Shown here: one piece after another, positions 16,801 through 16,837 of the stretch
Layout: each line of letters starts with the position of its first letter
Position numbering within the stretch: position 1 is the first letter of the stretch
From: Escherichia coli
GTDB taxonomy: Bacteria; Pseudomonadota; Gammaproteobacteria; Enterobacterales; Enterobacteriaceae
Direction: 5' to 3' (one strand)
Length of the DNA stretch: 36,812 nucleotides
Assembly (NCBI RefSeq): GCF_003334315.1
Contig: NZ_QOWR01000048.1
Notes under the pieces: generated by a model
The model's input: only the letters and a program-made list of their open reading frames with translations
Told to the model about the DNA's origin: nothing
The model's database searches: none
Position numbers and translations under genes: made by a program

Positions 16801-16837
16801 TAACAGCATGTTAGTGATAATGATTATCAGTTCAACC
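16801..16837 (-). promoter_or_regulatory. suf operon promoter (-35 TTGAAC, 16-bp spacer, -10 TAACAT) with a Fur box in the spacer
   Basis: On the minus strand TTGAAC (16830-16835) and TAACAT (16808-16813) flank GATAATCATTATC (window 16816-16828), which matches the Fur consensus core GATAATGATAATCATTATC. Fur repression of sufA is established. Confidence 0.6.

Follow-up and report, generated by a model that had tools for sequence, protein, structure and literature searches.

The core promoter of the Escherichia coli sufABCDSE operon and its Fur operator: anatomy and conservation in the Enterobacteriaceae

Classical Fur boxes, for example that in the operator of iucA (aerobactin), follow the 19-bp consensus GATAATGATAATCATTATC, overlap elements used by RNA polymerase, and give repression by holo-Fur when iron is sufficient. 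Baichoo & Helmann in 2002 are said to have reinterpreted the Fur box as a 7-1-7 motif. The promoter of the sufABCDSE operon, PsufA, has a Fur site with the same consensus and the same mode of action, and as curated this site reportedly goes back to Outten et al. in 2004, Lee et al. in 2008 and Mettert & Kiley in 2014. The element that we are discussing is that known Fur site of E. coli PsufA itself and not a relative of it, and it has been characterised since about 1999-2008. PsufA differs from the classical boxes in having a single perfect 7-1-7 element inside a 16-bp spacer, flanked by weak repeats, and in also carrying an adjoining site for the activator IscR and distal sites for OxyR and IHF.

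With regard to regulation, the model given in review is one of repression of suf by holo-Fur and of activation by apo-IscR and, at a distal site and helped by IHF, by OxyR (PMC8593673), and the curated, RegulonDB-derived interactions give the same picture. The sufABCDSE operon is one of those that have a Fur ChIP-seq peak and whose expression depends on Fur (Beauchene et al. 2015, PMC4676285). According to a 2025 study with northern blots, in which constitutive suf expression was obtained with delta-fur strains, Fur blocks initiation of suf transcription in LB (PMC12533949). An information-theory scan by Chen et al. (2007, PMC2189734) gave for sufA a Fur cluster of 21.3 bits, with three overlapping sites in 31 bp and its centre 53 bp upstream of the ATG. 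In a 2025 paper from the Kiley laboratory (PMC12594620) the Fur site was knocked out by changing -26ATA-24 to TAT, numbered from +1, and the resulting promoter without an intact Fur site, PsufA(Fur*), loses Fur control. The same paper reports two IscR-site mutations in PsufA, likewise numbered from +1: one removes -56 to -51 and the other replaces -50C by G, and both abolish IscR binding. Finally, according to Chowdhury et al. (2021, PMC8561392) the -35 of PsufA is TTGAAC, with 4/6 matches to consensus; it sits 1 nt nearer to the -10 than in PydiU and lies inside the right half-site of the IscR type II site. For the binding of Fur in vivo, and for the box mutant having lost Fur control, we rely on this literature; the promoter anatomy, the chance statistics for the box and the data on its conservation are our own.

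The DNA analysed here, which we refer to as the window, is a stretch of 36,812 nucleotides from E. coli (contig NZ_QOWR01000048.1 of assembly GCF_003334315.1), and the segment of interest is 16801-16837. A 1401-bp query covering 16300-17700 has 100% identity to E. coli chromosomes and is present in 5422 of the 5426 complete genomes. The annotated genes all lie on the minus strand in the order sufC, sufB and sufA, then ydiH, menI and ydiJ. The sufA coding sequence (16401-16769, minus strand) is annotated as the first gene of sufABCDSE, and the segment lies 32-68 bp upstream of its ATG. We conclude, with a probability of about 0.96, that 16801-16837 is the sigma-70 core promoter of E. coli sufABCDSE with its Fur operator, on the minus strand. 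In the sequence, the conservation data and the literature consulted, we found no evidence against a Fur operator. The locus, the -35, the ATA that was mutated and the predicted centre of the Fur cluster are all as in the PsufA of E. coli K-12, with no detectable difference in the window.

The minus strand of 16801-16837 reads GGTTGAACTGATAATCATTATCACTAACATGCTGTTA, which can be divided as GG-TTGAAC-TGATAATCATTATCAC-TAACAT-GCTGTT-A. The -35 hexamer TTGAAC (-34 to -29) is at 16830-16835 and doubles as the right-hand end of the IscR type II site, the 16-bp spacer TGATAATCATTATCAC is at 16814-16829, and the -10 hexamer TAACAT (-12 to -7) is at 16808-16813, all on the minus strand. The published observation that the -35 is 1 nt closer to the -10 than usual (PMC8561392) accounts for the spacer of 16 bp, a length that is constant across species. 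The published mutations also provide a means of placing the start, as there is only one ATA in the box, at 16827-16825, and if this is -26ATA-24 then +1 is the A at 16801 and position -50 is C, as it should be. The published numbering of -26ATA-24 and -50C fits no other start, and so puts TAACAT at -12 to -7 and TTGAAC at -34 to -29. We infer the exact start at 16801 (minus strand) from this application of the mutation numbering to the sequence. Converted to MG1655 it would lie at about 1,762,442 in U00096.2 or about 1,764,401 in U00096.3, minus strand. Transcription from there would give a 32-nt 5' untranslated region (16770-16801) with a GAGG at 16777-16780 (+22 to +25).

The spacing is within the 16-18 bp of sigma-70 promoters and the deduced start is about 7 nt past the -10, though the match to consensus is weak, with 8/12 for the TTGAAC/TAACAT pair. 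The window has about 3.2 equally good pairs per kb on each strand. The pair is thus not distinctive statistically, and the assignment of the hexamers rests on the literature and on conservation. A simple promoter scan did not list PsufA, since 8/12 falls under its cutoff of 9, but this reflects a weak, activator-dependent promoter and is no evidence against there being one. The initial annotation had called this segment the suf promoter with TTGAAC and TAACAT as its hexamers, and proposed that a mapped start incompatible with them would count against it. The downstream gene is indeed sufA, the first of its operon; the hexamer coordinates are correct, with the -35 named in PMC8561392 and the spacing conserved; and the numbering of PMC12594620 fits a start at A16801, so that the hexamers and the start, itself deduced, are in agreement.

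The Fur box was tested against the 7-1-7 motif TGATAATNATTATCA. The perfect box TGATAATCATTATCA, at 16815-16829 (-28 to -14), matches all 14 of the 14 specified bases and includes the site of the published Fur-site mutation. It comprises a core palindrome, GATAATCATTATC at 16828-16816, with a flanking T and A. The core fills 13 of the 16 spacer bases, being 1 nt from the -35 and 2 nt from the -10. From base composition 1.5e-4 exact matches are expected per window, and if up to two mismatches are allowed there are two hits in the window against 0.12 expected. The best match to the classical 19-bp consensus is 16/19, for GTTAGTGATAATGATTATC at 16810-16828 on the plus strand, which shares 4 bp with the -10; no such score was reached in 100 shuffles. 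The segment thus has a Fur box by either consensus, and it is situated between TTGAAC and TAACAT where it overlaps the core promoter.

The operator as a whole is wider than the spacer. The centre of the 'sufA -53' cluster of Chen et al. (PMC2189734) corresponds to 16822, which is the middle base of the palindrome, and the predicted cluster of three overlapping sites in 31 bp then extends over 16807-16837 (about -36 to -6). Weaker 7-1-7 repeats are present at a 6-bp offset on each side, one with 10/14 at 16809-16823 (-22 to -8) and the other with 9/14 at 16821-16835 (-34 to -20). The operator therefore overlaps both hexamers and abuts or overlaps the end of the IscR site. The suggestion in the initial annotation that the Fur box falls exactly between the hexamers holds for the core palindrome but not for the operator as a whole. 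Its other proposal, that this is an arrangement for iron-dependent repression by Fur, is well supported by the ChIP-seq and expression data, the delta-fur northern blots and the curated interactions.

A second Fur-like 7-1-7 site, TGATATTTATTATCA, with one mismatch, is present elsewhere in the window at 7108-7122, in the AT-rich ydhY-fumD intergenic region, and coincides with the predicted 'ydhY -255' Fur cluster of Chen et al. 2007 (PMC2189734).

The IscR type II activator site, AAAGCCCCTG...GGGTTGAAC, is placed at 16830-16856 on the minus strand (about -55 to -29), where it abuts or overlaps the Fur cluster. Its position is from the literature and from a conserved AA-N3-CC ... GGGTTGAA pattern, in which AA-N3-CC is 21 nt from the -35 in 80 of 80 scored sequences. 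The published CCxYA half-site consensus gives no clean fit to the IscR site by eye.

To look at conservation we scanned relatives of SufA, using one genome per species, and obtained 80 loci in the Enterobacteriaceae with SufA identities of 77-98%. For 79 species the whole promoter is kept, and these with the window gave 80 sequences for an ungapped alignment anchored on the -10. The box directly after the -35 is kept in all 80 species, as are the 16-bp spacer and the -10 in 79 of these. All of the 79 loci have TTGNNN, then a spacer holding the Fur box that is 16 bp in every case, and then the -10. The -10 is TAACAT in 77 species and TACCAT in 2. In the case of the -35, TTG is invariant in the 80 aligned sequences and the variants are TTGAAG (68 species), TTGTAT (5), TTGAAC (3) and TTGTAC (3). 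TTGAAC is the allele of Escherichia and the window, whereas most other genera have TTGAAG. The start column is A in 76 of the 80 aligned sequences.

The Fur box next to sufA has no mismatch in 46 species, one in 25 and two in 8. The variable columns are mainly -25, -20 and the adjacent -21, where the 7-1-7 motif has its central N, and on sequence grounds this is the pattern that would be expected for a Fur 7-1-7 site. Columns -35 to -7 almost all have 2.0 bits, with the flanks mostly at about 0.2-1.1 bits and third codon positions of sufA averaging 0.86 bits, so that conservation of the operator goes beyond the neutral background. The conservation of -35 to -7 cannot be divided between the constraints due to Fur, RNA polymerase and IscR.

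The 80th species, Intestinirhabdus alba (locus L059, 1030-1200), departs from this pattern: TTGAAG is followed by a perfect box, TGATAATAATTATCA, but the -10 has diverged (TAGGCT). Here the exact box is displaced about 158 nt upstream, and a GC-rich insertion of about 95 nt lies between it and sufA.

Within E. coli, a 71-nt promoter segment is present in 5420 of the 5426 complete genomes and identical in 3666. Four variant alleles were sampled, with changes in the -35 (TTGAAG or TTGTAC), in upstream positions or at -11, where A is replaced by T, and the 13-mer palindrome is unchanged in all four. The -11A to T change is in strain RIVM_C029670 (L085, aligned to window position 16812) and converts the -10 from TAACAT to TTACAT. 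It should strongly weaken PsufA in that strain.

We have considered whether the palindrome could be a chance AT-rich inverted repeat, or an operator for Zur, MntR or NsrR and not for Fur. There is nothing specific in favour of this beyond AT-rich spacers being common in sigma-70 promoters, and it has to be set against the exact 7-1-7 match where so few are expected, the 16/19 match to the 19-bp box, the retention of the element in all 80 species with variation at the least informative positions of the motif, the published Fur-site mutant (PMC12594620), and the reported binding and regulation of suf by Fur in vivo (PMC4676285). We regard it as effectively refuted. A different core promoter, in which the -10 was GATAAT or CATTAT within the box, would mean that the box overlaps the -10. 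AT-rich Fur boxes often double as -10-like sequences, and GATAAT has 5/6 matches to TATAAT. However, enumeration of pairs on the minus strand over 16770-17040 gave no acceptable -35 partner for these, the only other candidate pairs being about 150 bp upstream; TAACAT and the TTG of the -35 are conserved, with a spacer of constant length, 16 bp; and the published -35 (PMC8561392) and numbering (PMC12594620) fit TTGAAC-16-TAACAT. We therefore consider alternative hexamers very improbable.

A more substantial alternative concerns how Fur acts at the operator. Fur could be mainly an anti-activator that displaces or blocks apo-IscR, instead of directly occluding RNA polymerase. The overlap at the -35 of the IscR site (about -55 to -29) with the Fur cluster (about -36 to -6) is in keeping with this, as is the dependence of a weak promoter on activators. 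Yet the position of the perfect box, with a hexamer on each side, and the extension of the 19-bp box into the -10 mean that bound Fur must also clash with sigma-70. We think it possible, but on balance unlikely, that anti-activation is the main mode of repression, and in any event it does not exclude occlusion and would refine the main explanation and not replace it. The two mechanisms are compatible, and the balance between them is the only real question at PsufA.

Our preferred explanation, occlusion by Fur at the core promoter, can be set out as follows. When iron is sufficient, dimers of holo-Fur would bind in the 16-bp spacer, at the perfect 7-1-7 palindrome, and also at the weaker flanking repeats with the 6-bp offset, and together these would cover about -36 to -6, including both hexamers. 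RNA polymerase would then be excluded, and we infer that occlusion of the sigma-70 hexamers is the physical mechanism. There would also be a steric clash between Fur and apo-IscR, as the activator site of the latter has the -35 at its end. Under iron limitation or in the presence of oxidants, Fur would lose its cofactor and become inactive, and the promoter would be freed. The freed promoter, being intrinsically weak (8/12 with a 16-bp spacer), would then be driven by apo-IscR, and by OxyR with IHF from upstream sites.

The sufA control region is about 270 bp, from a hairpin 3' of rydB to sufA. The rydB small RNA (Rfam RF00118, 81.6 bits) is at 17091-17151 on the minus strand, upstream of the suf control region. 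The long hairpin, AAACCCTTAAG...CTTAAGGGTTT, is at 17040-17077, after rydB, and has a T-rich tail on the minus strand; it was absent from the output of a simple terminator scan.

The wider conservation map shows further blocks in this region. Those at about -222 to -196 have a CTAT-N7-ATAG pattern and are OxyR-site-like, in agreement with the published distal OxyR site. Another at about -152 to -138 is IHF-site-like. A palindrome, TTAGATAAT-AACC-ATTATCTAA, is at about 16949-16970 on the minus strand (about -148 to -169), with arms that resemble Fur hexamers and a centre of 4 bp. Simple scans call a promoter-like pair there, ATCACA-16-GATAAT, and in other genera conservation of the palindrome is limited to its downstream half. 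The palindrome probably overlaps the IHF region. At about 16861-16872 on the minus strand (-60 to -71) the reverse complement of AAAAGCATGTT has by eye about a 10/11 match to the NsrR half-site, for which the consensus is AAnATGCATTT, and this stretch is not conserved outside Escherichia.

There remains the block CAGGGTCTATGCTTA at 16888-16902 on the minus strand (-101 to -87), which is nearly invariant across the 80 species and occurs once in the window. Its distance from the -35 is 61 nt in 73 of 81 sequences, and conservation is poor in the DNA that separates it from the IscR site. By eye it has no convincing fit to the NsrR, IHF or OxyR consensus, and it matches none of the Fur, IscR, IHF or OxyR sites in the literature available to us. 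A short upstream open reading frame starting in the block was considered and rejected, since the spacing of the block to features further downstream differs by 1-2 nt between species and the reading frame is thus not kept. Going by its sequence and conservation the block would be a candidate site for an additional regulator, a conserved control element, but we hold this to be doubtful, and it may equally have been described already in primary papers. It is the sole item in the region that might repay a look.

Confirmation of the PsufA Fur box adds no new biology, and its use is as a positive control for hexamer and operator calls made from sequence alone; those of the initial annotation proved accurate. 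The comparative data document strict conservation of the composite Fur/RNA polymerase/IscR core in the Enterobacteriaceae. Assembly of Fe-S clusters can be switched from the housekeeping Isc system to the stress-resistant Suf system, and the Fur element in PsufA links this switch to iron status. The switch affects tolerance of oxidative stress and of some antibiotics (PMC8593673, PMC12533949).
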